Origin: a bacterium
GTDB taxonomy: Bacteria > Patescibacteriota > Saccharimonadia > Saccharimonadales > SZUA-47
Length of the DNA: 63,038 nucleotides
Direction of reading: 5' to 3'
Assembly (NCBI GenBank): GCA_030427125.1
Contig: JAUHXF010000003.1
Coordinates: 1 to 63,038, forward strand
Shown here: in pieces, positions 2,962 to 63,038 of the stretch
How the letters are laid out: every line of letters begins with the position of its first letter
Numbering within the stretch: the stretch's first letter is position 1
Notes under the pieces: generated by a model
Database searches by the model: none
The model's input: only the letters and a program-made list of their open reading frames with translations
What the model was told of the DNA's origin: nothing
Position numbers and translations under genes: made by a program

Positions 2962-2964
2962 AAC

Positions 2965-3665: not shown

Positions 3666-3722
3666 AAAAGCACATGCACAATGCTTGCCTCGCATCTGTA
3701 ATCCGGTTATGCTTACATCTAG

Positions 3723-37490: not shown

Positions 37491-37491
37491 T

Positions 37492-38667: not shown

Positions 38668-38676
38668 GATACCCTC

Positions 38677-41086: not shown

Positions 41087-41161
41087 ACGTAAGAATCCAT
41101 TATAGCCCCTGCCTCCTGATAAAGTAAACAAAAACGTAAGCAAAAACCTCTTAGCATGCTG

Positions 41162-41167
41162 TATAGT
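41162..41167 (+). promoter_or_regulatory. Candidate -10 box (TATAGT) placed 7 nt before the lepB GTG start (leaderless geometry)
   Basis: The sequence reads TATAGT-C-TATAGT-GTG. The first hexamer ends 7 nt upstream of GTG 41175. Confidence 0.35.
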
Positions 41168-41174
41168 CTATAGT

Positions 41175-41789: not shown

Positions 41790-41797
41790 AGTATTCC

Positions 41798-42646: not shown

Positions 42647-43395
42647 CTAGATTCTATCTCTTTCACCACCTGCTTATATGCTTTAGCGCCTTTTGACCAT
42701 TTATCGTGTTCAAATATGGTCTTTCCGAAACTCGGAGACTCAGCGAGTCGAACATTTCTGGGGATATACGTCTTAAACACATAGTCGCCAAAATGTTTTT
42801 TCACTTCATCAATTACCTGACCCGATAGCACGTTTCGAGTGTCTACCATGGTCATCAATACGCCTTCGAGTTTTAAGCTTGGATTCAAGCCAGCTTGTAC
42901 TCGTTGCACCGTTTGCATTAATAACCCAAGCCCTTCTAGCGCAAAGAACTCAGTTTGTACGGGTATTAACACGCTGTCCGCTGCCACTAACGCATTAATA
43001 CTCAAAAGCCCCAATGATGGTGGACAATCAATAAGTATATAGTCGTATGGCACAGAGGTAATTGTTTGTTTTAAAACAGATTCTCTGTTTGCAACTGCTA
43101 CAAGCTCTTGTTCGGCTGCGGCTAGTTCGGTTGTTGCTGGTGCAACATGTATATTATCTATATTTGTTGCTACAAGAATTTGCGATAATTGCACAGATCC
43201 AGACAAGACTGAATAGATTGATGACTGTAACGCATTTTTATCAATACCGAAGCCGCTTGTCGCGTTTGCCTGCGGATCAAGATCCACCACTAAAACTGAT
43301 CGTCCTTTTTTAGCAAGTCCAGCTGCAATATTAATAGTGCTAGTAGTCTTACCTACACCGCCCTTCTGGTTTAATACCGCAATTACTTTCCCCAT
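42643..43395 (-). CDS. parA: Chromosome partitioning ATPase ParA/Soj
   Basis: Deviant Walker A NQKGGVGKTT and Walker B ILIDCPPSLG. It overlaps parB by 4 nt. Confidence 0.9.
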   Translation of the reverse strand: MGKVIAVLNQKGGVGKTTSTINIAAGLAKKGRSVLVVDLDPQANATSGFGIDKNALQSSIYSVLSGSVQLSQILVATNIDNIHVAPATTELAAAEQELVAVANRESVLKQTITSVPYDYILIDCPPSLGLLSINALVAADSVLIPVQTEFFALEGLGLLMQTVQRVQAGLNPSLKLEGVLMTMVDTRNVLSGQVIDEVKKHFGDYVFKTYIPRNVRLAESPSFGKTIFEHDKWSKGAKAYKQVVKEIESR

Positions 43396-43426
43396 TAGAT
43401 TTATTGTAGCACCGTTTTACGCTAGA

Positions 43427-43930
43427 CTACTCTTCTTCTGGGGCTGGTTCTGATTCTTCTGCTGACCCACCCGCTGCTTCTGATTGAGCCCCTGCACTGA
43501 TTGGTCCGACTTTTACGAGCTGCTTTGTACTTGGTCGATAGAGCACAGCTTGCGAACTATCATTCAGCACTACGAGTATGTCGCCGTTTTCTGCGCCTTC
43601 AAAGAATGGTTGATCTGTAAGCTTTGTAACATCTTCAACAGTCGCAATTGTCGGTGTTTCTCCCTCTGGAATTGCATACACCTGTCGAATCTCATCCAGT
43701 ATGGTTGCGTTCTGTTCCTGCTGCAACCGAGAAACCGCATCATTTGGGTTGCTCACGATATCCCGTTTCAAAGCATCAAGTTCTGCATTCTTTTCATCGA
43801 GTGATGTTTGTAGTGATGATATCTCATTTCGTTGATCGATAATTGTCCAGACACCAAACCCAACTGCACCAACAGCAAGAACTGCCACTGATACAAATAT
43901 AATAGCTTTACGTTTTTGTTTGCTTTTCAT
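43427..43930 (-). CDS. Hypothetical membrane-anchored protein with a short coiled coil and an acidic tail
   Basis: N-terminal TM (AIIFVSVAVLAVGAVGFGVW). GGAGGG Shine-Dalgarno 5 nt upstream of the ATG. No motif I recognise. Confidence 0.5.
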   Translation of the reverse strand: MKSKQKRKAIIFVSVAVLAVGAVGFGVWTIIDQRNEISSLQTSLDEKNAELDALKRDIVSNPNDAVSRLQQEQNATILDEIRQVYAIPEGETPTIATVEDVTKLTDQPFFEGAENGDILVVLNDSSQAVLYRPSTKQLVKVGPISAGAQSEAAGGSAEESEPAPEEE

Positions 43931-43990
43931 GTCGCCCTCCAGTTGAAGTTATACCTTATGCTTACCTAAGAGTATATCATTTAATGCACG

Positions 43991-49900: not shown

Positions 49901-50173
49901 GTAGAGATTGAACTCGATATCATAGTCACCATCATCGACAAGTGATCCGCCGTTTGTCAGCAATCGCCCCTGGAAGTTGAGGGTGTCAGACGTAGCAGCT
50001 TCAGCTGGTGTGAAGATAGCGAGAGAAGTAATAACAGATACGAACAAAATAAAAATTGGCAAAAGAAAACTAATGGTAGTTCCCTTTTGCCATTTGGCAT
50101 GCCTTTGCTTATTAGGAAGCACGTGTCGCAAAATATTGCCCGCTTTTGTTTTTGTTTTTTTGATTTCTACCAA
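43991..50173 (-). CDS. Giant modular cell-surface fibre protein (2060 aa) built from tail-fibre-like modules
   Basis: N-terminal basic segment plus TM/signal (ISFLLPIFILFVSVITSLAIFTPAEA). Three super-modules each open with a poly-Gly run followed by TAF(Q/E)QGGN(A/G)F, and contain S(F)SGDGS.LT.LNG and IRW.G.D(L/F)E.Y(N/D)G..WVSLT motifs. A MAM-like domain ends NWHNDFGIDTITI. The TTG start at 50173 is uncertain. Confidence 0.8.
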   Translation of the reverse strand: MVEIKKTKTKAGNILRHVLPNKQRHAKWQKGTTISFLLPIFILFVSVITSLAIFTPAEAATSDTLNFQGRLLTNGGSLVDDGDYDIEFNLYSVDTGGSTLWTESRTGGNQVTIRNGYFSVYLGDVTAFPNTIPWDQELWLGMNVESDGEMTPRFKLTAVPYAFRAGAVLDGAGNALTGDDLAQLSPSSVQALNSAVAALRLNQTGSGALLQLQGDGSNALTVDKNGNAVLAGGVTLGDSTSTTAGTIRWQGTDLEVYNGADWVSLTAGGAGAVSSATATFFDATGGATIPSGSFTTINLDGTLSNSNPTVLSLAADEVTVTEDGYYEISYQVTSRLASGTRSGFNAKLQLDTGGGYSDVSGGQSYHYGRITTETQGTSAATVTLQLDAGDTLRLVGAGTSQSFTTISNATSMTVTRLGNDGGGGGTTAFQQGGNAFDATGVIGTTDTNGLDIVTDGNVALSIDALGAATFNNGLTVSGDSLDLNSEDLVNIGNISAADALTISSGGAGNLTLDSASDTLVLADNTIRRNGAGSTTIDLNDNSGATGLVVTNSDPGEVANLTVEGSITGLSFSGDGSVLTDLNGSAISSGTISDSVLSSNIARLDGVQNFSGTNTFDNNTTFSGGLTVGNSALTNAGNIRWTGADLEVYNGTDWVSLTSGGSVDPAGDYISVTTTANSNASTALYDVFQSGSYAAYSSTTNASNGIVYTPADGRFTIATDGVYKVDANYMLETSANALTNLLVQVNGASVYNHDTFVHTAVDPVERSVSVILDLTAGDYVEFFVDGSTGNITTHGGTSATIVPVSAASGGGGGGGGTAFEQGGNGFGAGAILGTTDTFGLNIITNGSNALTFTSAGLATFENDLTVDGGLTIDGDITAANGLTISSGTFADLTLSSASGDIILDADTLQRIGTGTTTLDLFDASGTTTFSIVNSDLSQVAGLLVEGDISGGDITSSGNVVASSFTGDGSGLTALNGTQITTGTIGDARLSANIARLDTAQGFSSLQSFNDGLRVGNTVSAVAGTIRWTGADFEGYDGSQWVSLTTPTSAPLLEGVLAFGKYDGVAGSALNEEGATVTKNATGDYRVTFDSAASTANYTIQLTVDEPVATLDDVIITADNISTAGFDVDVHEGDNGGTAGVRVDRSWNFFVVDSDAVVGGGGGGGSSGLEFLNGGNAFGGTAQLGTTDANGLRLFTNGNTVLDIDVAGDSVFTGALDVDGLFTANNGIALSAGSLDIGNNGIINAGAVAGVTTIDASGTATVGGLSTTGTVDATTVIVDFLTANNAITAPTSVNTINGLIINSGALSGVTGYTQTAGNFSISGTGTFSTGTGAVNLNGAVTTANSLDVGTVLNVAGTNGIVSSTAYFEGAITTGAAQLPGTSTGPYTFNADNDADEAAWTFVSPQGPGLQAAGGSNGFWVHDTDQTPSTDVGPVSGQGGNPDGYVYTEASTPGAFGDVFTMTNNSTFDATNGLSIDFYWNQRGDDNTAILTVQTNEAGAGWVTRGTYGGGDQPTGPTDVWNFESLDLGGGVVSDPSTQVRFVVTLPAAGTNWHNDFGIDTITITELGPFTYSDNVIEGYNASSTSNVDLLALRSDVGSVGNVVFRVDSDGDVFSDGTNNISNGADIAENYKNSDGAEPGDVVYFVDNRTVAKSSQQYQKGLAGVVSSDAAIILDAGVDGVPVGLKGRLPTKVSVANGLIEKGDYLTSGPDGRAVKATQTGTALGVAMEDASEDGLIDVFVGLTYYVSETNYSIPADGLEFPQQFTDIDVNSVATDGIIRLTREGELVNINGITLLAGGIDNNFSGIRSVGNVLGAYTVEAKQVALEAEAANDAVLQVTYAGNDTFTLSGDGSLGLRVTSEKAFNIADENGIDLFSVNTEGGVVQIGGGSSDPSAVLFILSRSNSPDDPIGVNGAQYYNEYMQKFRCYQDNEWVDCVTSVVSEYIIANNITQWAVESDESEMPGQPRTWLDLRSVSEYRIIASISTAGSTGTQCSMQYQLSGSEDWVTMDGSVDADNATSIKTDWNDVSSDITEAEEVQLRIVCSGGDGETELGISTLRLQVR

Positions 50174-50286: not shown

Positions 50287-50471
50287 GGATTCATAAGAAG
50301 TTTCACCCCAGTTATCCACATAGCTGTAACGTTCATCACTCCAAATGGGATGTCCTAGGAATAACGCGTTCTACTTCAGCTTGAATGCATAGCCTTACGT
50401 AACTAGCAAGATAATACCATTACTTCTGTACACACTAGCTCCACCCCCGTTATCGGGACCATTTCTAGCGA

Positions 50472-50494
50472 ATGCAGAGGTCGGACCTCTGCAT
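50472..50494. repeat. Copy 2 of the perfect palindrome, here 23 nt (atgcagaggtc-g-gacctctgcat), 15 nt after the hydrolase stop
   Basis: An 11-bp perfect stem with a single central base and no flanking U-tract. It is identical to 51533..51555. Confidence 0.9.
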
Positions 50495-50509
50495 GTATGC
50501 TTCCACGCT

Positions 50510-51445
50510 CTACTGTATGTTCGTGATGCTGTCTACGTAGTTATAAGTGAGAAGAGATATGCGAGCCATTTCCTGACTTGCAACGGGGTCAGTGCCTCTA
50601 ATTACGATACAAAGGCTATAATTAGCCGCCCCATCTTGTGCATATACAATTCCACAATCAGTTCTATAGATACTAGAGAAACTCCCAAACTTATGAGACA
50701 CACGAACATCCTCTGGTAAGAGCTTTGTTATACGATCTGTTGAGTTCGTTCTCGACAAAATCTCAAGGATTTCATTAGAATCCGTCTTATTGTTGTAGCA
50801 TGCAAGATAGAGGCACTTAAAGAGTCGTGAATATTGCTGAGAGGTTATGGTAAGCCGATTATCCACATCTACTGTTCGCTGTTCGTCTAGCGTGTTAAAC
50901 ACATTTAAAACACTCTCGGCTTGAAATGGTAGTAGTGATATGAGTGTTTCCGATGCGGTGTTATCTGACTCAATAAGCATGATATTAACTAATTCTTCAA
51001 TTGAATATGATTTACCGAGTGCTGTTTTATAGAGGTCACCGTATTCATCGTTCAAAAGATCCTCTGTAATTGTTACTTGCTGGTCGAACGATAAATTGCC
51101 ACGTTCTACGAGCTTATAGATTTCCATTGCGACAGCAGTCTTCATGAGAGATGCAGCAACGACTTCTAGCTCAGGGTTAATGGTGAAGGAAACCCCACTC
51201 GAGAGATATTCAAAATAAACTCCTATGTTTTCATTATCTGGGCCTATGTCGTTCAATAACGCGTTCTTTAACCCCGTGAAATCAAACCGTATATCATTAG
51301 GGTTCTCAATAAAAAGCTGTTTCGCTAGATACGGAAACTCTTGGGCTTGCTGCGTTTCATGTCGAATCTCGTACTGATACCCTATAAAGAGCCCTAGCAC
51401 AAACACGACGAGCAATACAGCTGCTTGTTTGATTCCAGTGTTCAT
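50510..51445 (-). CDS. Membrane-anchored class A beta-lactamase-fold serine hydrolase
   Basis: SxxK (AASLMKT), SDN (IESDNTASETL) and a KTG-like KFG (SHKFGS), in the canonical order and spacing. N-terminal TM (AAVLLVVFVLGLFIG). I moved the start to ATG 51445, because the ORF-track start at 51499 is a TTG lying inside promoter-like sequence. Confidence 0.65.
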   Translation of the reverse strand: MNTGIKQAAVLLVVFVLGLFIGYQYEIRHETQQAQEFPYLAKQLFIENPNDIRFDFTGLKNALLNDIGPDNENIGVYFEYLSSGVSFTINPELEVVAASLMKTAVAMEIYKLVERGNLSFDQQVTITEDLLNDEYGDLYKTALGKSYSIEELVNIMLIESDNTASETLISLLPFQAESVLNVFNTLDEQRTVDVDNRLTITSQQYSRLFKCLYLACYNNKTDSNEILEILSRTNSTDRITKLLPEDVRVSHKFGSFSSIYRTDCGIVYAQDGAANYSLCIVIRGTDPVASQEMARISLLTYNYVDSITNIQ

Positions 51446-51475
51446 CCTCGTTTTTTTGTCTACCTTTTCATAAGC

Positions 51476-51481
51476 ATTATA
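51476..51481 (-). promoter_or_regulatory. Candidate -10 box (TATAAT) for the hydrolase gene
   Basis: The minus strand reads GGGGTATAATGC 30 nt upstream of ATG 51445. I found no convincing -35 element. Confidence 0.3.
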
Positions 51482-51531
51482 CCCCTGCCATATATACAAT
51501 TCCTATATAATTCTGTGTATTTTTAAGTCTT

Positions 51532-51556
51532 TATGCAGAGGTCGGACCTCTGCATA
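51532..51556. repeat. Copy 3 of the perfect palindrome, here 25 nt (tatgcagaggtc-g-gacctctgcata), 32 nt after the stop of the >3816-aa gene
   Basis: A 12-bp perfect stem. It has the same central base orientation as the other two copies, and no U-tract. Confidence 0.9.
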
Positions 51557-51588
51557 GACTTATTCACGTATTATTTTTTCAACTATTC

Positions 51589-54500
51589 TTACTGGAGGAT
51601 CTGGTAGTCGAAGCTGTAAGTCTCGTTCTCTGCCGGAATGTCGACAAAGTGAAGAGTGAAGCCATTTTCGTCACGGGTTACAAAGTAATCTATCGTTGCT
51701 GAAGATGCGTCGAGCGGTGTTAGTGTCACGCGCGGTGCTTGATCATACGCTTCATCGAATATGATTTCTATCTGCTCTCCAGCTGCGATTGGATTCGCTA
51801 CTGTATCTGTACCCGTTTCGAATTCGATTGTTCCAGCAGTGTCATTTCCTTCGATAGTGTAGCTACTTCCCTGTCCTGTGGTGGTTGCACCTAGCACCGC
51901 AGTAGGTACATTACCGGCGGTGATAATCTTACCGTTGACTTTGAGGTCGGCTACTTCTGTGGTGCCTGTTACTTTGAGATTAGCTATGGTCGCTGTTCCT
52001 GTGACGGTTAGCTTAACGGTGGTTGCCTGGTTAGTTACGGTGATATTTTTCTTAGTGAGAGAGTTAGTTGTGGACTCGAGGACTGAGAGACGTGATTCAG
52101 CTGATGAGATGCGGGAAGTGTTTGACTGGACTTGAAGATCGAGCTCTTGGATAGAAGATGCAAGAAGAGATGTAAGGTGACGGTACTTTACTCCTGTAAG
52201 CTCACCTTCAGTGTCAAACTCTGCAAAGATCGGATTTACTGCCGCAACCTCTTCTGCAATGAAGCCAGTGTCCCAAATCTTATCATTTATGTTCCACTTA
52301 TATTTAACAGGTCGAAGTTGGCGAAGCGTTTCGAGGCCCCAAGGTAGTGTCGTAGTGTGGTCTTTGAAGCGCTGAAGCGATGTACAACGTGTGAGTGCGT
52401 AAGCTGTTACGCCAAGCTGTGTGTCGCCTGCGTTACGACAAACGGTGTTGCCTGTAAAAGCTGTGTTTGTAAAGCGAAGGTCACCAATATTCATCCCCGT
52501 AGCTCTATGATTCCCTGTTTCAAAATAGTAGTTCAATCCATCAAAGCCTAAACCTATAGTAGTCGAAGAGACATTACTAAATGTGAGATCACCACCAAGT
52601 GTTAAATTATCAGGTGAATATATTTCATTTGCGTTGTAATCAAATCTTAGATACGAAGCACCTGGCTGTGCGTTAGATACAGCTCCTGAGCCAATGAAGC
52701 CATAGCCATCCCCTCTGTATGTCATGTGCATAGAAGCTGCACCAGCCAATCCAGATTCACCTATTGATATGATGGCACCCTGACTGGTCCAGTTATCACC
52801 AGTATTTGGCGAAGCCAGTACAAGAGCAGGCTGAGCTAAGCCCGGTGCGACATACAGATCGCCGTTCGGATCAATTCTTAGCTGTCCGGCACTTGATGAA
52901 CAGCCCGAGGCTGTACAGTTTGTTCCAAACCTTAAGTCTGTGCCACTTGCAGACCAAATCATTGATCTGCCCGTACCTTCACTAAATACTAATCCTCCAC
53001 CCCAGTTCCCTTCTACCCGAATTGCGGCATCATCGTTTGATGTCGGGCTGAATCCAGCCCTCAATACAGTAAGGGCATTATCTGGAGCAGTGTTTCCTAT
53101 GCCGACATTTCCATTAGCTCTTGCTGTCAATATAGCTGTGTCATATGTAAAGTCTCCTGTATAGTTACCGCCGCCGCTGATAATACTAAAAGCGTCTGCT
53201 CCATCATTTTCATATAGTCCGACAACCAGATGTCCTGAATTGGCTCCCTGTATTAAACCGCCGAAGGTAGATCCAGGTACTAGACTTGTGATATCGGTAT
53301 CTCCAGAGCCATAAGATAATAGCTGAATAGAATTACTATTGACACCTATCTTTCCAGTAAAATCAAAATCACCTGACGTATTTACAGTGAGTCGCACAGT
53401 ACCGGCAGTCGAAAGGTTTGGTTCATGGAATAATCTGAGCGTACTAGAAGAGTTGTCTAGATTCCAAACAACATTTGCAGCAGGGTTTGTTGCGTTTCCT
53501 AGTGTGAGCCTAGATTGTCCAGAGCCAGCAACGAGCAAGTTTCCTCCCCACACGGTTGTTTTTACATCTGTGTCATGCTGTGTAGATGTGCCGATACCCA
53601 CAAAATCTCCGGAATTTACCAAAGTAGTAGACCCACCTGACGATGTCCATGCGCCACTTCCTCCACTACAGTTACCAAGGTTGACTAGACATACCTCATC
53701 GGTACCCACAAATGCTGGTATATCTAATACGGTATCGCCTCCAAGGTTATCAACTTGCAATGTTACTGTTTGACCAGTGCCATCAGATATTCGTAGTTGC
53801 CCTTGAGAAGTTGGTTCTCCAACTAGAACAGTGTCCCTGAGGAAAGTTGTGCCTCCAGCAGACTGGATGACATAGTTGTTCCCCAAAGAAGCTTGGCCGC
53901 CGTAGACTGTGTTGGTTCCTTGATCAAGTATTGTGCTGGATCCAGAACCGTAAAATGTGTTACCTTCAAGAATTGTCCCATCCGCTGACGATTGAATATG
54001 GATTGCGTAACCTGTACCTGAAGTATTAGTAATAAAGTTGTTTGAAATCTTTATATTATCACCTATAACATTTATACCGTCCAATCCCGAAGAATCTAGG
54101 CCGAAGTTTTCTATTCTGTTATTACTCACTATTGTATCCACGGATCCAGAATTTATATAAATTCCATCGTACCCCGTATCCTTGATATTATTGCCATCTA
54201 TTACAGTATTTTCTGATTGTGAAAATATACCATAGTCACTGCTAATATTGGATATTATATTGTTAGTCACAATTGTGTTGTTGGATTCAGTCTCTAAAGC
54301 TATGCCAGGATCACTTATTGATCCTGAGATAGTATTATTTGAGATAATATTCTCAAGAGAATTTTGTATTCGTATACCATAGCCACCAGCTGATATTGTG
54401 TTGCCTTCTATTAAGGTTCCTGATCTCAAACCTGCACTACCGTTAGCAACGTATATCGTATCTGCTGTTGCAATATTTGAGGTGAAAGAGTTGCCGGATA

Positions 54501-57500
54501 TTACATTGTTTTGAGCTATTCCTGTAGGAGAATATATGTATATAGCATGGTTAAAGGCAGGACCATTATAATCTGTTAATGTACTATTGATAACTTTGTT
54601 ATTTGAACTATCTTGAAAATGTATATTTGATCCATATGCAAAGTTAATGATGTTTACATTTTCTATAATTCCTCCAACCCTTCTTGTAGTTGGTTCTCCG
54701 ACATCGTCAAAATATATAGCTCGTTGAGTGCCACCAGTACCCAGGGAGCCGTCAAGTGTCAGATTACGGATAGTTTGACCGGTTCTATTTGTACCTGTAG
54801 CTTGAATCAAGTTGTCTGTTCCGGCACCTACTGAAAGCCTAATAATTGTGCCAATTCCTGCTCCTTCAAGAGTGGTGTTATTAGGTATGAGGATTGTACC
54901 GTCTGCAGTATACGTGCCTTCTGCAAGGTAGACTTTACCACCTGCCGCCGCAGAAAGCGCTGAGTTAATCTCTGTTTCGTCGCTTGTACCGTCAGTGTAG
55001 TAATCAGCTGTGATGCCTGAGCCTGATGGAGCGACGATGAAAGTAGCTGTCTTCGGACCGGCACATGCTCCCCAGACAGGCAGCGTGCCGTTTGATACAA
55101 GACATTGGCCATTGGTACCTATACTTCTTTTAGCTATAGTTGTGCTGTTTGATGCATAGAGAATATCGCCGGTTGTATATGAAGTGATGCCAGTACCGCC
55201 GCGAGCAGTTGTTAATGTCCCACCTGTAAAGAATGTACCAGCATCTGCATTCGTTACATTGCTCAAAACACCTGTGCTGTTTATTCTAGTTGTGCCAGCT
55301 GTACGTATTTCAGAACCAGCATCAACAGTCTGATCGACATATAATCTGCCATCATTTGTGAGCGACATAGCTCCTTGTGACTGTGAGTGACCATCTTGGC
55401 CCCACCACCAACCACGGTTAGCCGTGTTGTTCATTTGGAATGTCATGGCATAACCATTTAGGTATCCGTATGTAAAGGAGTTTTGCATACCTATTGTGTA
55501 AAGGTTGCTGTTCCAAACCCGAATCTTGTCTCTTGTGCTAGTTGAGTTTGCAGTGTAGACACCAGAATTAGTAATATTCCCGAAAGTTACGCTGTCTGTA
55601 GTCTGAACATTTTGATTCATATCATATAGTTCATTCGCACCTTGACCGGTGTCTAAGGTAGTAGCTGTCAAAGCACCTGAGAATGATCCTGAGCCAGCAT
55701 TTACGATGTTCCTGCTGCCATCGATGATTGCTGTGGTGCCTATTTTAAGATCCCTAACTCGCAGTGTTTCATAGCCGGTACCAGGATTATCTAACACGGC
55801 AAGATCACCGGATGTGTCACCCTCTAGGAAACCAAACTGCGACGCTACTGCACCACCGAGATGGAAGCCAATGCGTGGAGACCTACCGGATGCGCTTGTT
55901 TCGTACACTTCGATACCAGCCTGTGAATATGCAGCTCCACTGCTTCCTGTGAATCTTTGTTCAGCAGTGAAAAGCTGGTTAGATCGATCAAGTAGTGCAA
56001 CGTTTGAAGTCAATCGAGCATCAGCTAGAGTGCCTGAACTGATGTTAGAAGCGTTGAGGCTAGTCAGCGAAGCTCCAGAACCAGAGAATAGATTACCATT
56101 GATAGTACCCGGCACCGTAAGAGAACCATCTGCTCCGAAAGTAGAAGCATAACTTGCTGCATAGCTGCTCTGTCTATTTGTTATTACTTGAACTGCACCG
56201 TCTGCAGTCAGGTATAACTCTTCGCTGGTTGTACCTGCAGCAATTCCAAGATCACTAACCAATGCGACACCGTTGTCTCCCGCATGTAGAATAGTTGAAC
56301 TATCTGAATACTGAACATAGCCGCCTTGGTTTGTAATTTGCTGCATTGCACCACCAGTCCAGGCTAATCTGTTGTTGCCTGTCGAAGCGCCTAAAGTAAC
56401 TGAGTTAAATGTAGGATTGTCGGATGTTCTGAGGTTTTGGTTACCAAGATATCCAGCGATAGTATTCACTTCTTGTGCGCCGTTGCCTGTGTTGATGGTT
56501 GCGAAGGTTGGTGCAGATGTTGTTGCGATATCCTGAGGCAAGCTTAGAGTAATGTTCGATCCAGATGGAGTAACCGTTATTTGGTTAGCTGTACCTACGA
56601 CGTTAAGGTTACCTGTTAGTGAATTTAAGCTCAGTACTCCGGAACCCGCGGATGCGTAATTACAATTATTGCTAGCGTCACAAATCTCATTTCCAAATAC
56701 ATATGCATCATTTGTATCTGCCTCAAGCTGAAGAGGGTGTGGACCTTCCCATGCATCGTCTTCGTTGCGATCCGCCAATACATAGAAGTTGTTCGAATTC
56801 ACATGAATCCAAAAATTGTCGTTTGCATCGCTATCGTTAAAGTAAAGCTGAGGTGAAGCTTCAGTCAATGTTAGTTCTGCTCCAAATGAAGGACTGTCGG
56901 TCGTACGCAAGTTTTGGTTACCTAGGTACTCAGCAATTGTGTTTACTTCAAGCGCACCATTCCCAGTATCTATGGTAGAGATATTCTGAAGGGCGCCGGC
57001 ATTAGTCAGTCTAGTTGTTCCTGCTGTTTGTATCGCTCCAGTTACAAAATTAGTGTTTCCTGTGCCCTGATCGATTATCAATCTATCGGCGCTTCCATCT
57101 GTCACTACAAGGTCATCACTGGCTGCACCGTCATTCCAGATACTCCATCTTTCAACACTCTGGTTATAGAACGCTATTCCTATATCTCTATCAAAGTTAG
57201 AGTTAAGTTGAAGTGCAGTTCTATTACCTTGGTTTGCAGTGTTATTAATACGTGCAATTGCAGTTCCTTGACTCTGTCCGTCGTTTACAGTGAAGCCTCC
57301 CCCTACTGTAATATCGCCACCACTCTCTGTAATCACTGAATCGCCTAGCGTTCCAGTTCCAGTAAATACTGGTACTGTTCCGCTTGTTCCAGAGCCAGTT
57401 ATCGCTCCTGAGCCAGCAGTACAGGTAACGAGTTGGTTTGAGCCGTTGAGACAGATTGCTGAGCCTGTGCCTGCTCCTAAGCCTGTGTAAGTGATTGTGC

Positions 57501-60500
57501 CAGAACTTGTTATGCCAGTCAGGCCAGTAATGCTATTGGTAGCAGTAATTGCTCCTGTATCCTGTACCTTAAACACAAATCCGGTGTCGTTATTTGCCGG
57601 CGCTACCGCGCTGTGAATTGTAAATTCATCAGAGCTATTATTGTTTGTGTCTAAGAATATTCGAGTGTTATTGATTGAGTCAATAAGTATGCCGCTACCA
57701 GACTCTTGGATGCCTGCAACAGTACCGTTGAAAGTAATTTCTTTGCTCGCACCACTTAGTGCTAAATTTCCTGTTAAAGTAGCGCCGCCAAAGGTAGGCG
57801 AATCAGTAGTTCTAAGATTTTGGTTACCAAGATACTCAGCAATAGTATTCACTTCTAGCGCACCATTGCCCGTATCAATGGTTGTGATGTTCTGAAGAGC
57901 ACCGGCATTTGTAAGTCGAGTTGTACCGTTAGTCTGCAGGCCTCCTGTTGTAATATTAAAGTTTCCTGCTGAAGATAGATTTGCCGCCTCATACTCCGTA
58001 GAATTTGATACACGAAGTGATAGTGATGTATTGCCTGTACCTTGATATCCTGCTGTTATAGCTGCTTCGTTCGCACCTGATATACCAAATGCTAGGTATT
58101 CAGTTGATGTATTTGCACCATCAATACGCAGCGTAAGTGCATCATCTGAGCCATTTGCAATTTGTAGTTTTGTAGATGGATTGTTCAAACCTACACCCAA
58201 GTTCCCATTTTCAAAATATGAATTACCATCAGTAACCGTAAAGAAGTCGCTTGTATCTGCAAAGTTACTCACCTTTAGCAATGTTGCATCGCTTCCTGAG
58301 TTTCCAGCTAAGATTTGTACACCTTTAGCAGTACCGCCGCCATTAGAAATTGATACATTGTAATTCGTATTACTGCTGTTGGTTAGACCTAGCGTCTGCC
58401 CGTTGTAGGTGAAGCCTGCTCCTGAAGCTATAGAACCACTACCGTTAAAGTAAGCTACTTGGTTAGCTGTGCCACTTCCAGTAATACCGCCTCCACTTGA
58501 ACATGCTCCCCATGAGGCAGTGGTGCCATTAGATACGAGACAGGTGTTGTTGCCTCCGATGCCTAGTTTGCTCCAGGTGTTTGAGCCTGCTCCGAGGAGT
58601 AGATCTCCTACAGACGTAGTGGACTGACCTGTACCACCACGGGTGGCTGCAAGCGTACCAGTGGTACCAGTTCCTAGTGGGAGACTGGTTGCGTCAGTAA
58701 GGTTAAAGGCTGGTGTAGCATCACTAGAACCAAGGGATACAGATACTCCACCATAGCTGACTGAACTATTTGCTAAGTAAGTATTAGCTATAGCATTACC
58801 TTGGTAGGTAACATTCTGTAATACCCCCGCGTTAGTAAGCCGGGTAGTGCCCCCTGTTTGGATAGCACCACCTGTTGAATTGATGTTACTGCTAAATGTG
58901 CCCGTTCCATTGATGAATAACGCTGGGTTATTCACATCAATCCAACCAGTCACGACATCTGAATCAGTTTCAATAAACTGTATTTGAGCATCAGCTTCCA
59001 ATGAAATACCTAAGTCATAAGGAGCTGAACCTCCGCCAGTTAGAGCATTTATCCCGCTCCTAAGCGGAATAACTGCATAGTCAGCACCAGCTCCAGCGGA
59101 TCCGGTAGCTCCAGAGCCTGTAGCAAAGCTCGCATCCCCATTCACCGTCAGCCCATTGAATGTCGGCGCTGAAGTAGTGGTGAGGTTCTGCCCTGTATCA
59201 TACTCAAGCTGTGTGTTTCCAATCGAGTTATTTGCTATAGAAAGGTTTATGTTTGAGCCTGATGGGGTGACAGTAAGTTGGGTGTTGCCTTGGATGCTGA
59301 GTGCACCGGTGAGGGAGTTAAGTGAAGTGACGCCTGCTGTGCCAGCAACACTGGCTTGAGACACCCAGGTGAAGCCACCAGTAGTGTGGTCATAAGTAGC
59401 AACGTAGTTATCTTGGCCTGCTCCTGGAGCAGTGGTGTTGTCTAGGTCTTGTGCAAGAATCGTGTCATTGGCTATTTCTTGGGTACGAACAGAACCATCA
59501 ACTATCTCGGCTGAGTTAACACTGTTTGTTGCCAGTGAGGTAGCATCAATGCTGTTGTCGGCTATTTGGGCATCGTCTATACAGTTGGCGGTAATGGATA
59601 CGTCATTGGCATTGGCAGTGATACAGGTGCCTGCTCCGACGTTGAGGGTTGTGCTTCCGCCAAGAGAGACAGAGCCACCGTTAGCTAGGCCATTACCAGC
59701 GGTGACGGTAATAGAAGAGTTTTGTAGTTCTCCATTAGAGATTTGTCCATCGTCTATGATGGATAGGTCTGTTTCAGATATGTTGGTTGAACCTATGATG
59801 AGGTTAGCACCGGTAATGGTTAAGTCTCCAAGTAAGCTTGCATTGCCTGTCTCTGCGACTTGGAAGAGGATGTTGGTTGGGGTGAGGTCACCAAGGCCTT
59901 CGTTCTTCACCACTGAGAAGGTTTGGGTATCTGCATCATTGTTGTTGTAGTCAATGGCGATGATGGCTGAGTCTTCTGCTCGAACGGCTAGGTTACCGCC
60001 ACTGTCATAGATATCTCCACCAAGGGCAGCGATGTCTCCATCGGATTGAAGGAAGTCTGTTTGGACGGTACCGTCAAAGTAGGCATTAGCAAACTGTTCG
60101 GTAGCAGTACCTAAGTCATAGGCATTGGTTGTGCTTGGGATGATGTTACCACCAACCGTGATCTGTCCGGCTGGGTTGAGGAGGATGTCGCCTGATGTGG
60201 TTGTTTGTAGGGTGAGGTTGCTACTTGTTCTATTGATGGTGGTGACAAAGTCTAGTTGGGACTCCAGGTTAATGGTTGTTCCTGTGATGTCTATGTCATT
60301 ACCTGCACTATACGTTGTGTCTGTACCGACACCACTTTGAGCTACCCAATTGAAGCCACCTGTTGAATGATCATAGATAGCTACATAGGTATCTTCAGAA
60401 GCTCCTGGAGCTGCGCCGTTGTTTTCGAGGTCGACGGCGAGGATTGTGTCATTAGCTATTTCTTGGGTGCGGACTGAGCCATCAACTATCTCTGCAGAGT

Positions 60501-63038
60501 TAACACTGTTTGTTGCAAGAGAAGTCGCATCAATACTGTTGTCGGCAATCTGTGCATCATCAATACAGTCAGCGGTAACTGCGACATCATTAGCATTGGC
60601 AGTAATACAGGTGCCACCACCCACGTTGAGGGTGACTGAGCTACCAAGGGCAACACTACCACCATTGGCGAGACCGGTGCCTGCGGTGATGGTGAGGGCA
60701 CCGGAGCCAGTTAGATAGGTGTTAGCTATGGTGTTGCCTTGGTAGGTCACGTTCTGAAGAATACCTGCGTTGGTGAGACGGGTGGTGCCGTTAGTTTGGA
60801 GGTCGCCAGAAATAATGTTTGCATTAGCTGAATCAGTGAGTCTGAATACTTCAGATAACACTGCTGCGTTTGTAGTGTAGAATCGAAGGTCTCCATCTTG
60901 AACACTTCCTGCGTTGAACGACTCAATCTTAGCTGAGTCATACACTCCACCATCATTGTTCTCCCAAATAAGGCTGAATATAGGATTACTATTGCCTGTA
61001 TTACCGCCAACAAATGTTGCTTCACCTACAGGCTCTACAACACGAAGCACTTCTCCTGTTCCACCAGTAATAGTTAGCTCTTGAAACGCAGGGCTATCCG
61101 TAGTCCTCAAGTTCTGATTACCGAGATATGCTGCGATGGTATTTACTTCTAGGTCGCCATTGCCTGTGTTGATCGTGGCGAACTGTGGCGCGGAAGTAAT
61201 CGTCAAATCCTGCCCCGTATTGTATTCCAGTTGGGCATCACCTATTGAGTCGGCTGCTATGGCGAGGTTTATGTTACTGCCTGATGGGGTAACGGTGAGT
61301 TGAGTGTTGCCTTGAATGCTGAGTGCTCCAGTGAGGGAGTTGAGTGAGGTGACGCCAGTACCACCACCAAGGCCATCACCATCTACCCACGTGAAGTTAC
61401 CAGTTGCATTGTTGTAGCTTAAGACATAGCCATCTACCCCTGCTCCACCATTGGTGATGTTGAGGTCTTCTTCAAGAATCGTATCATTGGTTATCTCTCC
61501 GGTGTCTACATCACCTGAGACATTGTCTGGTGAGGTGTCATAGGAACCAGTGGTTTCACTGCCGAGGGTAATGGTGCCGTCTTCTAGGAGGGCAAGATCT
61601 GACTCAGTAAGGTTAGTGGTACCTATGGTGAAGTCACCACCTGAGACGGTGAGGTCACCCGTCGTCGTGATGTTGCCGCCTGCTGTCACAACAAGTTCTC
61701 CTGCATTGACGTTGAAGCTGCCGGCGGTGTTTACCAGGATGTTGCCTGATGTTGTGGTGGAGAGCGTTAAGTTGCTACTAGCTCTCGTGATGGTTTGGAC
61801 AAAGTTTAGTTCACTCTCTATGTCTATCTGAGTACCTGTCACATCAATGTCGTTCCCAGCTGTTGAACCAGTACCACCTGCGCCAGCGACTGAGGAGATA
61901 ACTCGCCATCTACTGGAAGCGCTGTCATAGACAAGGGTATTAGATGCACCAGCTGGGATAGAGATAGCACCACCAGTACCGGTGATGATCCTATTGGCTG
62001 CAGTGGAGGCAGCATCCTGGTTGTTGAGGGTGGCTGCGTTGCTTCCAGCGTTAATAATAGTGATGAGTTCTCCGTCTCTCCCGCCGGCTATACCGGTTAG
62101 TGTCTGAGCAGATGCACCAGTCAAGCGGATGAGTGAAGCATTGGCGAACGAGGCGTTGTTGGTGGTGCCGGTGGTTGCGAAGTCGGTACCCCGCCTGAAA
62201 GCAACACTCTGGGTGACGTCGAGCGTACCAGCCAGTGAGACTGAGTCAGTGAGGTTAACGGTCAGGTTGCCATTGGCACCGGCATCGCTAAAGGAGATGT
62301 TAGTACCTGCAGTTAGGACGCGTTCATTAGTAAGCGTACCGTCTAGGCCAAGGGTGAGATAGCTAGCTGTTTCTGGAGCACCACTGCCGCCACCGCCACT
62401 GCCACAGGTGTCACTGAAGCTTAAGCCCCCTGCTCCATCACCAATGACACAGTCGCCGCTGTCACCATAGGCTGCAGGCAGCGTGAAGGTGAGGTTAGCA
62501 CCGATGCTCGCTGACTGTATCTGGGTGTAGGTAGCGCCTGATCCGTCATACAGTCGTAGTGAGCCTGCTTGGGAGGTTGTCCCTATGGAGAGATTAGCTC
62601 CTTGGACAAGGGCGGTGCCAGCAATCGTGGTTTGGATACTACTGTTGCCAAGCGTTAATGCACTGGCATTGGCCGTACCAAGACTAATGGCTCCAGTGGT
62701 ACCAGTGGCTGTACCGACATCAATGGTGATGTCACCTGAGTCAGAAGTAGCACCAAGGGCATCACCTGTTTGAATCGTAACATCATCAGAGTCAGCAGAG
62801 CCTGCATTGGTGTCATCCGAGGAGACATTACGTGAGGTGAAAGCATACGGGACGCTAGTGAGCCTAAAGCGAGGGCTCATCTCACCATCCCAGCTTGGTG
62901 CACCAGTGCCACCAATGTTCATGGTGAGCCAGAGTGGTTGGCTCCAGTCAATGTTTGGGAGAGCAGTCACATCACCAAGATAGACAGAATAGTAGCCATC
63001 ACGAATGGATACTTGGTTACCACCAGTTCTGGTTTCTA
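51589..63038 (-). CDS. Giant cell-surface fibre protein, more than 3816 aa; the 5' end lies beyond the right window edge
   Basis: The frame stays open to the window edge. The residues upstream of the ORF-track start (a GTG at 62970) read ETRTGGNQVSIRDGYYSVYLGD, continuing a domain paralogous to the N-terminal domain of the 2060-aa protein. It holds many repeated modules, a parallel beta-helix region and a peptidase S74-like intramolecular chaperone domain. Confidence 0.85.
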   Translation of the reverse strand, partial: ETRTGGNQVSIRDGYYSVYLGDVTALPNIDWSQPLWLTMNIGGTGAPSWDGEMSPRFRLTSVPYAFTSRNVSSDDTNAGSADSDDVTIQTGDALGATSDSGDITIDVGTATGTTGAISLGTANASALTLGNSSIQTTIAGTALVQGANLSIGTTSQAGSLRLYDGSGATYTQIQSASIGANLTFTLPAAYGDSGDCVIGDGAGGLSFSDTCGSGGGGSGAPETASYLTLGLDGTLTNERVLTAGTNISFSDAGANGNLTVNLTDSVSLAGTLDVTQSVAFRRGTDFATTGTTNNASFANASLIRLTGASAQTLTGIAGGRDGELITIINAGSNAATLNNQDAASTAANRIITGTGGAISIPAGASNTLVYDSASSRWRVISSVAGAGGTGSTAGNDIDVTGTQIDIESELNFVQTITRASSNLTLSTTTSGNILVNTAGSFNVNAGELVVTAGGNITTTGDLTVSGGDFTIGTTNLTESDLALLEDGTITLGSETTGSYDTSPDNVSGDVDTGEITNDTILEEDLNITNGGAGVDGYVLSYNNATGNFTWVDGDGLGGGTGVTSLNSLTGALSIQGNTQLTVTPSGSNINLAIAADSIGDAQLEYNTGQDLTITSAPQFATINTGNGDLEVNTIAAYLGNQNLRTTDSPAFQELTITGGTGEVLRVVEPVGEATFVGGNTGNSNPIFSLIWENNDGGVYDSAKIESFNAGSVQDGDLRFYTTNAAVLSEVFRLTDSANANIISGDLQTNGTTRLTNAGILQNVTYQGNTIANTYLTGSGALTITAGTGLANGGSVALGSSVTLNVGGGTCITANANDVAVTADCIDDAQIADNSIDATSLATNSVNSAEIVDGSVRTQEIANDTILAVDLENNGAAPGASEDTYVAIYDHSTGGFNWVAQSGVGTDTTYSAGNDIDITGTTINLESQLDFVTTINRTSSNLTLQTTTSGDILLNPAGQITVGGNIIPSTTNAYDLGTATEQFANAYFDGTVQTDFLQSDGDIAALGGDIYDSGGNLAVRAEDSAIIAIDYNNNDADTQTFSVVKNEGLGDLTPTNILFQVAETGNASLLGDLTITGANLIIGSTNISETDLSIIDDGQISNGELQNSSITVTAGNGLANGGSVSLGGSTTLNVGAGTCITANANDVSITANCIDDAQIADNSIDATSLATNSVNSAEIVDGSVRTQEIANDTILAQDLDNTTAPGAGQDNYVATYDHTTGGFTWVSQASVAGTAGVTSLNSLTGALSIQGNTQLTVTPSGSNINLSIANNSIGNTQLEYDTGQNLTTTSAPTFNGLTVNGDASFATGSGATGSAGAGADYAVIPLRSGINALTGGGSAPYDLGISLEADAQIQFIETDSDVVTGWIDVNNPALFINGTGTFSSNINSTGGAIQTGGTTRLTNAGVLQNVTYQGNAIANTYLANSSVSYGGVSVSLGSSDATPAFNLTDATSLPLGTGTTGTLAATRGGTGQSTTSVGDLLLGAGSNTWSKLGIGGNNTCLVSNGTTASWGACSSGGGITGSGTANQVAYFNGSGSIASGAGFTYNGQTLGLTNSSNTNYNVSISNGGGTAKGVQILAGNSGSDATLLKVSNFADTSDFFTVTDGNSYFENGNLGVGLNNPSTKLQIANGSDDALTLRIDGANTSTEYLAFGISGANEAAITAGYQGTGNTSLSLRVSNSTEYEAANLSSAGNFNITTGGLQTNGTTRLTNAGALQNITTIDTGNGALEVNTIAEYLGNQNLRTTDSPTFGGATLTGNLALSGASKEITFNGTVAGIQESGSGILIDSINNTRIFLDTNNNSSDEFTIHSAVAPANNDTGFVFKVQDTGAITATNSITGLTGITSSGTITYTGLGAGTGSAICLNGSNQLVTCTAGSGAITGSGTSGTVPVFTGTGTLGDSVITESGGDITVGGGFTVNDGQSQGTAIARINNTANQGNRTALQLNSNFDRDIGIAFYNQSVERWSIWNDGAASDDLVVTDGSADRLIIDQGTGNTNFVTGAIQTAGTTRLTNAGALQNISTIDTGNGALEVNTIAEYLGNQNLRTTDSPSFGAELTLTEASPQLYFNDSDANDNFWIHVNSNNFYVLADRNEDDAWEGPHPLQLEADTNDAYVFGNEICDASNNCNYASAGSGVLSLNSLTGNLNVVGTANQITVTPSGSNITLSLPQDIATTSAPTFATINTGNGAQEVNTIAGYLGNQNLRTSDNPTFNSVTLGASTGNNRLAWTGGAMQQITNQGGYVQYSDSSTILHAGDNGVALVSDLGIAAGTTSEELYLTADGAVQVITNRQSSYAASYASTFGADGSLTVPGTINGNLFSGSGASLTSLNASNISSGTLADARLTSNVALLDRSNQLFTAEQRFTGSSGAAYSQAGIEVYETSASGRSPRIGFHLGGAVASQFGFLEGDTSGDLAVLDNPGTGYETLRVRDLKIGTTAIIDGSRNIVNAGSGSFSGALTATTLDTGQGANELYDMNQNVQTTDSVTFGNITNSGVYTANSTSTRDKIRVWNSNLYTIGMQNSFTYGYLNGYAMTFQMNNTANRGWWWGQDGHSQSQGAMSLTNDGRLYVDQTVDAGSEIRTAGTTRINSTGVLSNVTNADAGTFFTGGTLTTARGGTGITSYTTGDILYASNSTTIAKRSIGTNGQCLVSNGTLPVWGACAGPKTATFIVAPSGSGITADYYTDGTSDETEINSALSAAAGGKVYLAEGTYTADGTILIPNNTTLEGAGIGTIIRLSVGAGTDNLIQATGTNRTGQTIRNLTLDGSLGTGGTQRAIYFDDVGEPTTRRVGGIIENVNIINFAYGSNIHFQDSSNNKVINSTLTDYNGPAFNHAIYIYSPTGIAQNNVISGNSFTSNIATADTIYVANGSAGLRSGTLIEGNTISAGGYGIRIQNSLENIISNNTISGSISDPGIALETESNNTIVTNNIISNISSDYGIFSQSENTVIDGNNIKDTGYDGIYINSGSVDTIVSNNRIENFGLDSSGLDGINVIGDNIKISNNFITNTSGTGYAIHIQSSADGTILEGNTFYGSGSSTILDQGTNTVYGGQASLGNNYVIQSAGGTTFLRDTVLVGEPTSQGQLRISDGTGQTVTLQVDNLGGDTVLDIPAFVGTDEVCLVNLGNCSGGSGAWTSSGGSTTLVNSGDFVGIGTSTQHDTDVKTTVWGGNLLVAGSGQSRLTLGNATNPAANVVWNLDNSSSTLRLFHEPNLSTAGTVRLTVNTSGDFDFTGKIGVNSNSIQLLSYGSGDTDITSLVPGSTFGGLIQGANSGHLVVGLYENDGADAFSIISGGGNYTGDFTYDTAILTARANGNVGIGNTAPDNALTVLRAGFSPTSNDDAAIRVEGNWGGGLVFSEGTGRSMIWSASGTDLRFGTNCTASGCSSSAGQLRIDPNGDLYVAPGLAQPALVLASPNTGDNWTSQGAIISIGESGLAGAASMHMTYRGDGYGFIGSGAVSNAQPGASYLRFDYNANEIYSPDNLTLGGDLTFSNVSSTTIGLGFDGLNYYFETGNHRATGMNIGDLRFTNTAFTGNTVCRNAGDTQLGVTAYALTRCTSLQRFKDHTTTLPWGLETLRQLRPVKYKWNINDKIWDTGFIAEEVAAVNPIFAEFDTEGELTGVKYRHLTSLLASSIQELDLQVQSNTSRISSAESRLSVLESTTNSLTKKNITVTNQATTVKLTVTGTATIANLKVTGTTEVADLKVNGKIITAGNVPTAVLGATTTGQGSSYTIEGNDTAGTIEFETGTDTVANPIAAGEQIEIIFDEAYDQAPRVTLTPLDASSATIDYFVTRDENGFTLHFVDIPAENETYSFDYQILQ
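59452..59583 (-). repeat. Coding repeat, copy B of a 44-aa invariant block (CIDDAQIADNSIDATSLATNSVNSAEIVDGSVRTQEIANDTILA)
   Basis: It lies 984 nt (328 codons) from copy A. The peptide is identical. The DNA differs at 21 of 132 positions, all of them third codon positions. Confidence 0.9.
60436..60567 (-). repeat. Coding repeat, copy A of the same 44-aa invariant block
   Basis: See copy B. The flanking 100 aa or so on each side are also similar between the two copies, but not identical. Confidence 0.9.

Follow-up and report, generated by a model that had tools for sequence, protein, structure and literature searches.

The DNA analysed here, 63,038 nt of contig JAUHXF010000003.1 (the window), ends within a giant open reading frame (ORF) on the minus strand which, with a 2,060-residue fibre gene close by on the same strand, had been put forward in a first-pass annotation as encoding one of two surface fibres. 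This giant gene, its product and its likely role are the subject of this study. No stretch of the window is open for longer than minus-strand positions 51592 to 63036, which hold 3,815 codons and are closed by a stop codon at 51589-51591; the figure of more than 3,816 codons given earlier described a real open frame but included the stop in the count of 3,816. The frame had also been said to continue past the window edge, and it does exit through the right edge, but as the gene lies on the minus strand the end that is lost is the 5′ end, and with it the N-terminus of the protein, not the 3′ end. Residues of the giant protein are numbered from the first codon inside the window, and its parts are as follows.

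51589-63038, minus strand: giant ORF, 3,815 sense codons plus stop, 5′ end cut by the window edge
62839-63036, minus strand: residues 1-66, C-terminal half of a MAT_N-like β-sandwich domain (alignment with the neighbouring fibre, family alignments)
55117-62838, minus strand: shaft, residues ~67-2640, shuffled and diverged modules rich in G, T, S, N and A (self-comparison, motif positions)
60328-60696 and 59347-59712, minus strand: most similar pair of shaft modules, residues 781-903 and 1109-1230 (82% identical as protein, and as DNA 82% over 214 nt)
53857-55059, minus strand: right-handed parallel β-helix of CASH type, residues ~2660-3060, Pfam core at 54112-54546 (PF13229, NosD, TIGR03804)
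52393-53856, minus strand: distal region, residues 3061-3548, just ahead of the predicted cleavage site (conserved blocks)
52045-52392, minus strand: Peptidase_S74 intramolecular-chaperone domain, residues 3549-3664, ending in a long helix (PF13884, alignment A2, AlphaFold2 model)
51592-51999, minus strand: post-chaperone module, residues 3680-3815, short β-helix-like repeats followed by a lectin-like domain of ~60 residues (alignment A5)

At the base composition of the window, with ~5.9% of random codons being stops, the chance of such an open run is ~e^-230. Since residues 1-66 align with residues 103-163 of the neighbouring fibre and with relatives such as P0036, ~100-125 codons are estimated to be missing at the 5′ end, which would give a total of ~3,920-3,940 residues. 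A 951-nt Logan contig of run X1 reaches 824 nt past the edge of the window, and the start of the gene is therefore present in public data; an exact 48-mer from the window end was absent from the GTDB representative genomes and the JGI metagenome contigs. The composition of the product (T 13.3, G 13.3, S 9.7, A 9.3 and N 9.1%) agrees with the earlier description of it as rich in these five residues, and the two fibre genes do jointly take up more than a quarter of the window (17.6 kb, or 28%).

The soundness of the assembly was assessed with Logan contigs from four public runs of two studies (biofloc and 'metagenome'), which showed no substitutions and no indels over 50400-63038. A 29.1-kb contig of runs X3 and X4 covers 50400-60475 and a 6.2-kb contig of runs X1 and X2 covers 56781-62941. 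Within the giant gene the Logan contigs break at four places, three of which are bridged by a contig of another run; at a branch at 62912-62941 no single contig bridges, which counts against the soundness of the assembly there. The last 127 nt of the window (62912-63038) lie on a 257-nt unitig with a depth of 25.8 as against 12.7 (runs X3 and X4) and are only 72-80% identical to the N-domain DNA of the neighbouring fibre gene, and therefore a further, near-identical copy of the N-domain must exist, either at another place in the genome or in a strain that occurs alongside. Such an extra copy probably explains why the source contig ends at the window edge. No 21-mer recurs within the giant gene, the longest DNA repeat in it is the 214-nt one at 82% identity, and Tandem Repeats Finder (TRF) reported no tandem repeat in it. 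Since no 21-mer is repeated and the longest repeat is both short and diverged, collapse or expansion of repeats is very unlikely, and the check for misassembled repeats that the first-pass annotation had called for gave repeats that are not of the misassembly-prone kind. The 11.4-kb frame is a real, intact gene.

Domains of the giant protein

A Peptidase_S74 domain was recognised near the C-terminus by a match to PF13884 over residues 3555-3602 (31.5 bits with the whole protein and 36.3 bits with the segment, cutoff 22). The predicted nucleophile, Ser3553 (52378-52380), is followed by Lys3558 (52363-52365) in the motif SLQRFK (S-x4-K). The Ser and Lys columns are invariant in alignment A2, which holds 13 sequences (the giant protein and 12 relatives), and S-x4-K is kept in 15 of 15 S74 domains of related Saccharibacteria loci. 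A PDB search with the single sequence gave no match; an hmmsearch of the PDB with the S74 profile matched the phage long tail fibres 6F45 (E 3e-17) and 8JOV (1e-13), the ICA domain of MyRF (7DC3, 3e-11), the T5 L-shaped fibre (8HQZ, 1e-4) and phi29 gp12 (3GUD, 8e-4). Residues 3549-3664 were modelled by AlphaFold2 (AF2) with a predicted local distance difference test score (pLDDT) of 83-97, and Foldseek placed the model nearest to 7DC3 (E 3e-4, prob 1.0) and to the K1F endosialidase chaperone (3GW6, E 1e-2).

The S74 domain is not terminal in the giant protein, as ~150 residues (3665-3815) follow its helix, and it is likewise internal in all 14 related domains seen in full, with tails of 150-520 residues. 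In alignment A5, built from 11 Saccharibacteria relatives, these residues resolve into short β-helix-like repeats and the lectin-like domain, which resembles H_lectin (PF09458): seven of 12 members match weakly (best E 7e-4), all under the Pfam cutoff, and a profile of the C-terminal domain found no match in the PDB. The protein ends in ...FDYQILQ. An internal S74 domain followed by a lectin-like domain is an unusual structural feature of this fibre.

Ahead of the chaperone, the distal region has conserved blocks at residues ~3210-3330 and 3400-3485 ('SGDNWTSQGA..MHMTYRGDGYGFIGSG..YLRFDYN') that it shares with 'tail fiber domain-containing' proteins across many phyla, among them proteins from Flavobacteriales, Patescibacteria and Woesearchaeota. 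Residues 3391-3540 are 32% identical to a Bacillus phage tail-collar protein. The AF2 monomer model of residues 3380-3815 has low confidence in the distal region. Two cysteines lie ~20 residues apart before the S74 serine (..VCRN...TRCTS; 52378-52450, residues ~3531-3553); the pair recurs in most relatives (C...C[ST]S), and a disulfide, or a cysteine ring, is conceivable at the cleavage site.

The β-helix matched PF13229 (E 6e-19, 68.7 bits, cutoff 25.9), NosD PF05048 (E 6e-11, 42.6 bits, cutoff 23.6) and TIGR03804 (30.5 bits, cutoff 19.45). When a profile of the β-helix family was compared with the PDB, the mannuronan C5-epimerases AlgE4 and AlgE6 matched best (E 2e-21), and NosD, an α-1,3-glucanase, a fructotransferase, alginate lyases and the pneumococcal adhesin PfbA were matched as well. 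Such a fold is characteristic of polysaccharide-binding and polysaccharide-processing proteins.

Residues ~67-2640, which gave no Pfam match, form the shaft. The recurring modules reported in the first-pass annotation are present here, but they are dispersed and diverged, without tandem arrays: each occurs in two to five copies with 40-86% amino acid identity by self-comparison. Besides the most similar pair, residues 1691-1770 and 1993-2067 are another example (72% identity). Motifs within the shaft include TTRLTNAG (five times), EVNTIAxYLGNQNLRT (four), LNSLTG (three) and RGGTG...WGAC (two), and several shaft motifs are also present in 'tail fiber domain-containing' proteins of other phyla.

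Residues 1-66 are 67% identical to residues 103-163 of the neighbouring fibre (E 4e-24) and 74% identical to P0036, whose N-terminus bears a membrane or signal segment. The neighbour and its close relatives have a basic n-region, a hydrophobic segment of ~20 residues and an AxA site, after which the β-sandwich follows directly; in the AF2 model of the neighbour's N-terminus a helix (residues 34-51) precedes the β-sandwich (residues 65-160), with a pLDDT of 89-98. The modelled N-domain, a generic Ig-like sandwich, had no significant match in the PDB or BFVD. Among NCBIfam families, the only hit of the neighbour's N-terminal 290 residues was NF053851 ('Bdello_MAT_N, mosaic adhesive trimer family chimeric fiber protein'; E 1.5e-6; 28 bits, where the curated cutoff is 60). 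Of the 24 sequences in the N-domain alignment, 22 matched NF053851 (best E 2.6e-11), and none matched a different family. The giant protein had been predicted to be extracellular by its homology with a signal-bearing paralogue, and its residues 1-66 do correspond to the tail of the domain that follows the neighbour's signal. The paralogy of the two fibres holds in a narrower form than first described, as the part they share is essentially the N-terminal domain and two short motifs only.

Relatives, chromosomal setting and mosaic variation

Homologues of the giant protein were searched for with three sub-queries. The N-domain pattern occurs at 195 loci in GTDB species representatives; the 80 listed nearly all bear the label Saccharibacteria, Saccharimonadia or Patescibacteria, often with several per genome. 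Complete N-domain genes encode 900-3,501 aa, and in three cases the flank of 10 kb ends before the gene does, after more than 3,380 aa; many contigs of metagenome-assembled genomes (MAGs) end inside such fibre genes. The cassette of S74 and end domain (residues 3530-3815) matched 947 cluster representatives with E < 1e-10 among 1.84 billion proteins; many of these matches reach the C-terminus of the protein, and the proteins are up to 3,964 aa long. The domain order of the giant gene agrees with that of complete relatives of 2,300-3,735 aa.

Apart from the fibre genes, the window holds housekeeping genes, encoding SecA, SerRS, class I LysRS, an FtsX-type permease, a pilin-like protein, RF1, PrmC, S2, EF-Ts, RRF, HtrA, LytR, signal peptidase I (SPase I), ParB and ParA. 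ParA, ParB, SPase I, LytR and HtrA are 59-72% identical to the products of Candidatus Saccharibacteria or Saccharimonadia MAG genes, which stand in the same order, and judged by these genes the window is a chromosomal segment of a Saccharibacteria-type bacterium of the candidate phyla radiation (CPR). The genome economy that the first-pass annotation had read from the remaining genes accords with these housekeeping neighbours. Scans of the window with Rfam and for tRNAs gave no match, and PADLOC found nothing in it.

The position directly upstream of parA-parB-(SPase I)-LytR-p253-HtrA is occupied by an N-domain giant gene in at least 14 MAG loci. In the window, positions 36681-50173 have the order fibre gene(s)-(p167)-parA-parB-SPase I (on the opposite strand)-LytR-253-aa protein-HtrA-PrmC, and this order is kept in 12 loci (L026, L035, L043, L047, L053, L061, L066, L073, L075, L076, L077 and L080). 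The gene just before the N-domain giant ends in an S74 or end-domain cassette in L024, L026, L032, L035, L066 and L071. The fibre locus is a fixed feature beside the partition genes across many Saccharibacteria MAGs.

A positional ortholog of 3,735 aa on JAUIBQ010000004.1 has 62% identity across 285 aa at its C-terminal end and 39% at its N-terminal end, and its middle is barely alignable. Behind it lies an ortholog of the neighbouring fibre (58% identity), and ahead of it are genes of 3,067 and 2,595 aa. On that contig, positions 17885-60712 (L006/L041/L071) carry genes of 940, 953, 3,067, 2,595, 275, 3,735 and >803 aa on one strand, amounting to more than 30 kb of consecutive giant fibre-type genes.

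Marine-sediment runs gave a similar picture, with patches 80-98% alike at the N-terminal part, at some modules and at the C-terminus, and with depth falling to zero or close to it over 52832-57935. Marine-sediment contigs of low depth (X9 and X13) join modules that lie 1-4.7 kb apart in the window (59464-61484 and 56445-61130), and a contig of the biofloc metatranscriptome run X11 at 60388-61465 also joins module copies that are apart in the window. These odd joins represent either relatives with another module order or paralogous modules. The module-level variation between strains that had been suggested as a further check was thus found in both the ortholog and the sediment relatives, and a conserved pair of ends with a mosaic middle is supported among the relatives.

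A candidate host-attachment fibre and its alternatives

Taken together, these findings make it likely that the giant gene encodes a Sec-exported, homotrimeric, self-cleaving and glycan-targeting surface fibre of the mosaic adhesive trimer (MAT) type that serves host attachment. The S74 chaperone with its Ser-x4-Lys dyad in the giant protein, a module by which phage tail fibres and Bdellovibrio MAT fibres trimerise and cleave themselves, and the C1q/BclA-type (TNF-like, trimeric) domains in the neighbour, bear out the earlier suggestion of surface fibres. MAT fibres, described in 2024, lie on the surface of Bdellovibrio bacteriovorus, and one of them binds prey glycans (PMC10769870). Their shaft is an intertwined trimer, and two kinds of variable end are described, an S74 domain with SDxxxK and an adhesive domain (Caulton et al. 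2024; PMC10769870), the latter being TNF-like, a C-type lectin or one of several new β-sandwiches (PMC10769870). Self-cleavage at the S74 serine has been shown for Bd3182 at S782 (PMC10769870).

The resemblance to these fibres extends over several levels. In both cases the fibre is encoded by a cell, not a phage, and the carrier lives on other bacteria; a signal peptide, here predicted for the giant protein from the neighbour and relatives, is followed by a conserved β-rich N-domain (~130 aa in MAT), for which most members of the present family match Bdello_MAT_N; a long shaft follows, trimeric in MAT and presumably so here; S74 (S-x4-K) and non-S74 (TNF-like, lectin or β-sandwich) subtypes occur in one genome, here side by side; and paralogues and orthologs are chimeric or mosaic. 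The differences are that the fibres described here have 2,060 and ~3,930 residues as against ~1,000; that the N-domain match falls below the curated cutoff; that S74 is internal with ~150 conserved residues after it, whereas it is terminal in the S74-MATs of Bdellovibrio; that a CASH-type β-helix is embedded in the giant fibre; that the C1q-like knobs of the neighbour are internal rather than terminal; and that the producer is a monoderm CPR epibiont. MAT relatives in other predators have 417-1,915 aa (PMC10769870, Table S3), and no Saccharibacteria or Patescibacteria are listed among the MAT relatives in the text of that paper or in the supplements consulted (PMC10769870). Our literature search found no description of these fibres in Saccharibacteria. 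One preprint mentions a 'tail fibre-like protein' near a CPR pilus operon, and S74 'tail fiber domain-containing proteins' are already known from automatic annotation, one of them from a Patescibacteria MAG (P0114).

Other known systems share parts of this architecture. The tail fibres and tailspikes of phages (3GW6, T5 pb1 and S16 6F45) have the S74 Ser-Lys dyad with a similar profile and fold, a β-helix lies upstream of S74 in tailspikes too, and evolution is likewise modular; the present gene, unlike theirs, is not viral, a Sec signal (known from relatives) and a MAT_N-like domain replace the virion adaptor, the giant fibre is 3-10 times longer, and extra domains follow the chaperone. An internal S74-type domain is also found in MYRF/MrfA (7DC3, the best Foldseek match), in which self-cleavage parts an N-terminal trimer from the C-terminal part (PMC3828593), although this is a eukaryotic membrane-bound transcription factor with no other domain in common. 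The fold and profile at residues ~2660-3060 are shared with the A-modules of AlgE-type epimerases and other CASH β-helices, the β-helix here being one domain within a fibre. By description, Giant1-5 of A. kunkeei (PMC12863079) and the giant ORFs of Omnitrophota (PMC10066038) are alike in being consecutive genes of thousands of codons for extracellular proteins that take up a notable share of a small genome.

Two further candidates were rejected. An RTX/Bap/Ebh-like giant tandem-repeat adhesin does not agree with the absence of tandem repeats, of such Pfam families and of LPXTG, nor with modules that are 40-86% identical. For a CdiA/Rhs-type contact-dependent toxin, the C-terminus is conserved rather than polymorphic, no toxin domain was found, and the downstream gene encodes a protein of β-lactamase fold.

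In the mechanism proposed here, a signal peptide encoded just beyond the window, as seen in the paralogue and relatives, would carry the chain across the membrane, and the conserved N-terminal β-sandwich would remain beside the envelope of the producer. Some ~2,600 residues of shuffled modules would build a long shaft, and the β-helix and distal region may bind, and possibly modify or cut, a glycan of the host cell. The S74 chaperone would align three chains and then cut itself at Ser3553 with Lys3558 as the base, freeing or loosening a 263-residue C-terminal piece that bears the lectin-like domain. The 2,060-residue neighbour would provide a further fibre from this family, one in which C1q/TNF-like knobs stand in for S74. 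A role in host attachment and host range, as suggested in the first-pass annotation, would fit the glycan-binding precedent of MAT and the combination of conserved ends with a mosaic middle.

Several observations weigh against this reading. The match to Bdello_MAT_N lies under the NCBI curated cutoff (28 versus 60 bits for the neighbour) and covers mainly the half of the domain that is outside the windowed part of the giant gene; the signal peptide of the giant protein is predicted from homology, its own N-terminus lying outside the window; and no LPXTG, lipobox or C-terminal anchor was found that would hold the fibre on the cell after signal cleavage. The AF2 monomer model of residues 3380-3815 is poor outside the S74 domain, the last domain included, and the H-lectin match of the window protein is sub-threshold (15 bits, E 0.027, cutoff 24). 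Cleavage at an internal S74 domain would remove the lectin-like end, which is awkward if the tip of the fibre binds the host. The supplementary tables consulted from a study of cultivated S. epibionticum list no S74 or tail-fibre protein, and the fibre family may be absent from the tractable oral strains. Short metatranscriptome contigs (X11 and X12) cover parts of both genes, being 93-98% alike for the giant gene and up to 100% for the neighbour; they are consistent with transcription without proving it, as carry-over of DNA is possible.

The β-helix admits another emphasis, in which the protein is chiefly a secreted or surface enzyme active on polysaccharides; with epimerase, lyase or glycanase activity it would open the host envelope, or draw food from that envelope or from environmental polymers, and the shaft would be no more than a spacer. 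Its best matches of solved structure (AlgE4/AlgE6, α-1,3-glucanase, fructotransferase and alginate lyase) are enzymes of this kind, phage tailspikes unite binding and cleavage, and essential envelope proteins of Saccharibacteria with domains for glycan binding or degradation are known (PMC10633639). The same profile, however, matches the non-enzymatic β-helices NosD and PfbA, and the domain makes up ~400 of ~3,900 residues. The AlgE enzymes carry the catalytic motif YG(F/I)DPH(D/E), and the family consensus, judged only by inspection of the profile-AlgE4 alignment, has no obvious catalytic motif at the position of the AlgE4 active site. We regard an enzyme as rather unlikely to be the whole answer; it is compatible with the host-attachment fibre and possibly part of it.

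A structural coat or matrix protein, S-layer-like or forming a biofilm or cohesion fibre, would have no part in host recognition. Giant1-5 of A. kunkeei serve aggregation and biofilm roles (PMC12863079), and the conserved chromosomal position of the gene would suit such a protein; the fast mosaic turnover of the middle suits recognition better than a scaffold, the domains (S74, β-helix, lectin-like and C1q-like) are those of receptor-binding fibres, and the relatives of known function are prey-recognition fibres, all of which makes this explanation improbable.

Since S74 and several of the blocks are common to phage tail-fibre and tail-collar proteins (26-38% identity), and mosaic evolution is typical of phage receptor-binding proteins, the gene might also be a phage or prophage tail-fibre or tailocin gene lying in the chromosome, with a product that is part of a virion. 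No phage genes were found in the window, though, and the giant protein had no PHROG match, only its two neighbours having weak ones. The annotated neighbours are all housekeeping genes, and the position next to parAB is kept across many MAGs; relatives bear a Sec-type signal and a MAT_N-like domain but no virion-attachment domain; a search of IMG/VR gave no relative of the C-terminal cassette; the GC content is genome-like (0.465 and 0.479 for the two giant genes versus 0.447 in the rest of the window); and known tail fibres are several times shorter. A viral origin of this kind is very improbable. Least credible of all is that the frame arose in assembly, from fused paralogues or from repeats that were collapsed or expanded, or that it is a decaying pseudogene. 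The four contig breaks, the unbridged branch, the double-depth end and the many MAG contigs that end inside such genes could be cited for this; against it stand the identity with the contigs of four runs, the bridging of the three other breaks, the lack of repeated 21-mers, the 3,815 open codons and a domain order like that of complete relatives.

If the giant protein is a host-attachment fibre of the MAT type, it bears on how CPR/Patescibacteria epibionts find and hold their hosts, a question that is largely open beyond type IV pili and a few glycan-binding envelope proteins (PMC10633639, PMC11623550). Host cell-wall glycans matter for binding by Saccharibacteria (PMC11623550), and transposon sequencing (Tn-seq) in S. 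epibionticum identified essential envelope proteins that bind glycans (PMC10633639). The locus would tie Saccharibacteria to the MAT fibres of Bdellovibrio, the sole cell-encoded fibre family with experimental support for prey recognition, in a lineage in which the fibres are 2-4 times longer than MAT, lie at a conserved locus and vary at the level of modules. It also offers named candidates for host attachment and host range, in the form of Ser3553, Lys3558, expressible fragments and a locus that can be compared between strains. For annotation, the locus shows that 10-kb frames of this sort in CPR MAGs represent genuine genes rather than artefacts of assembly, and it accounts for the tendency of contigs to break there.

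A more speculative proposal, which we put forward as a long shot, is that S74, a terminal and discarded chaperone elsewhere, has become an internal release joint in Saccharibacteria, operated by self-cleavage at Ser3553. A shaft of ~3,650 residues would then be kept by the producer, and the trimeric chaperone with its lectin-like head would be freed or loosely held; the head may stay on the glycans of the host to mark, prime or block it, or be handed over during attachment, and together with the shuffling of shaft modules the parAB-adjacent locus might be the main determinant of host range in environmental Saccharibacteria. Were this true, that locus would play the part that receptor-binding proteins play in phages.

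Neighbouring genes and other features

The remaining features near the giant gene are listed below.

43991-50173, minus strand: 2,060-residue fibre gene of non-S74 type (NF053851, E 1.5e-6; ortholog beside parA in at least 14 MAG loci)
50012-50074, minus strand: signal or transmembrane segment of this fibre, residues 34-54, with an AEA site at residues 57-59
49679-49996, minus strand: its N-domain, residues ~60-165 (alignment, AF2)
47774-48145, minus strand: its C1q/BclA_C-like knob, residues 677-800 (Pfam)
50510-51499, minus strand: membrane-anchored protein of 329 residues with a class A β-lactamase/PBP-like fold, between the two fibre genes (PF13354, E 3e-37)
51533-51555, minus strand: perfect 23-nt palindrome ATGCAGAGGTCCGACCTCTGCAT, 33 nt past the stop codon of the giant gene, with a copy at 50472-50494 after the β-lactamase-fold gene

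The neighbouring fibre is built like beads on a string, with at least two C1q/BclA_C-like jelly-roll knobs (~residues 283-427 and 677-813; BclA_C/C1q matches with E 5.5e-9 and 4.5e-4, slightly under the Pfam cutoffs) separated by poly-Gly linkers (GGGGGGGG), one of which was reported by TRF with the unit TCCGCCGCC at 47729-47752. No S74 domain was found in it with the HMMER filters off. Its C-terminal part of ~330 residues is homologous to the part that follows S74 in two of the related loci (L053 and L080).

The β-lactamase-fold protein scored 79 bits with the NCBIfam family bla_class_A, far under the cutoff of 200, and may act on peptidoglycan. Its relatives adjoin fibre genes in four MAG loci (L015, L031, L076 and L077).

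Degenerate copies of the palindrome lie inside two ORFs (14343-14365 and 36825-36847), with none expected by chance, and a Logan contig from another locus holds two copies 33 nt apart. From its sequence, the palindrome at 51533-51555 is probably a terminator-like hairpin, without a T-run; alternatively, it could be a dispersed element resembling repetitive extragenic palindromic (REP) sequences or uptake sequences.

Two further genes of the window are of possible interest for the cell surface. An ORF of 1,043 residues at 33071-36202 (minus strand), without a Pfam match, could encode another envelope protein. Next to FtsX/MacB-type genes, positions 18558-20105 (minus strand) encode a protein of 515 residues that is a candidate adhesin of the minor-pilin or pilus-tip kind: a pilin methylation motif (PF07963) lies at its N-terminus, and a galactose-binding domain (F5/8 type C-like) was matched weakly.

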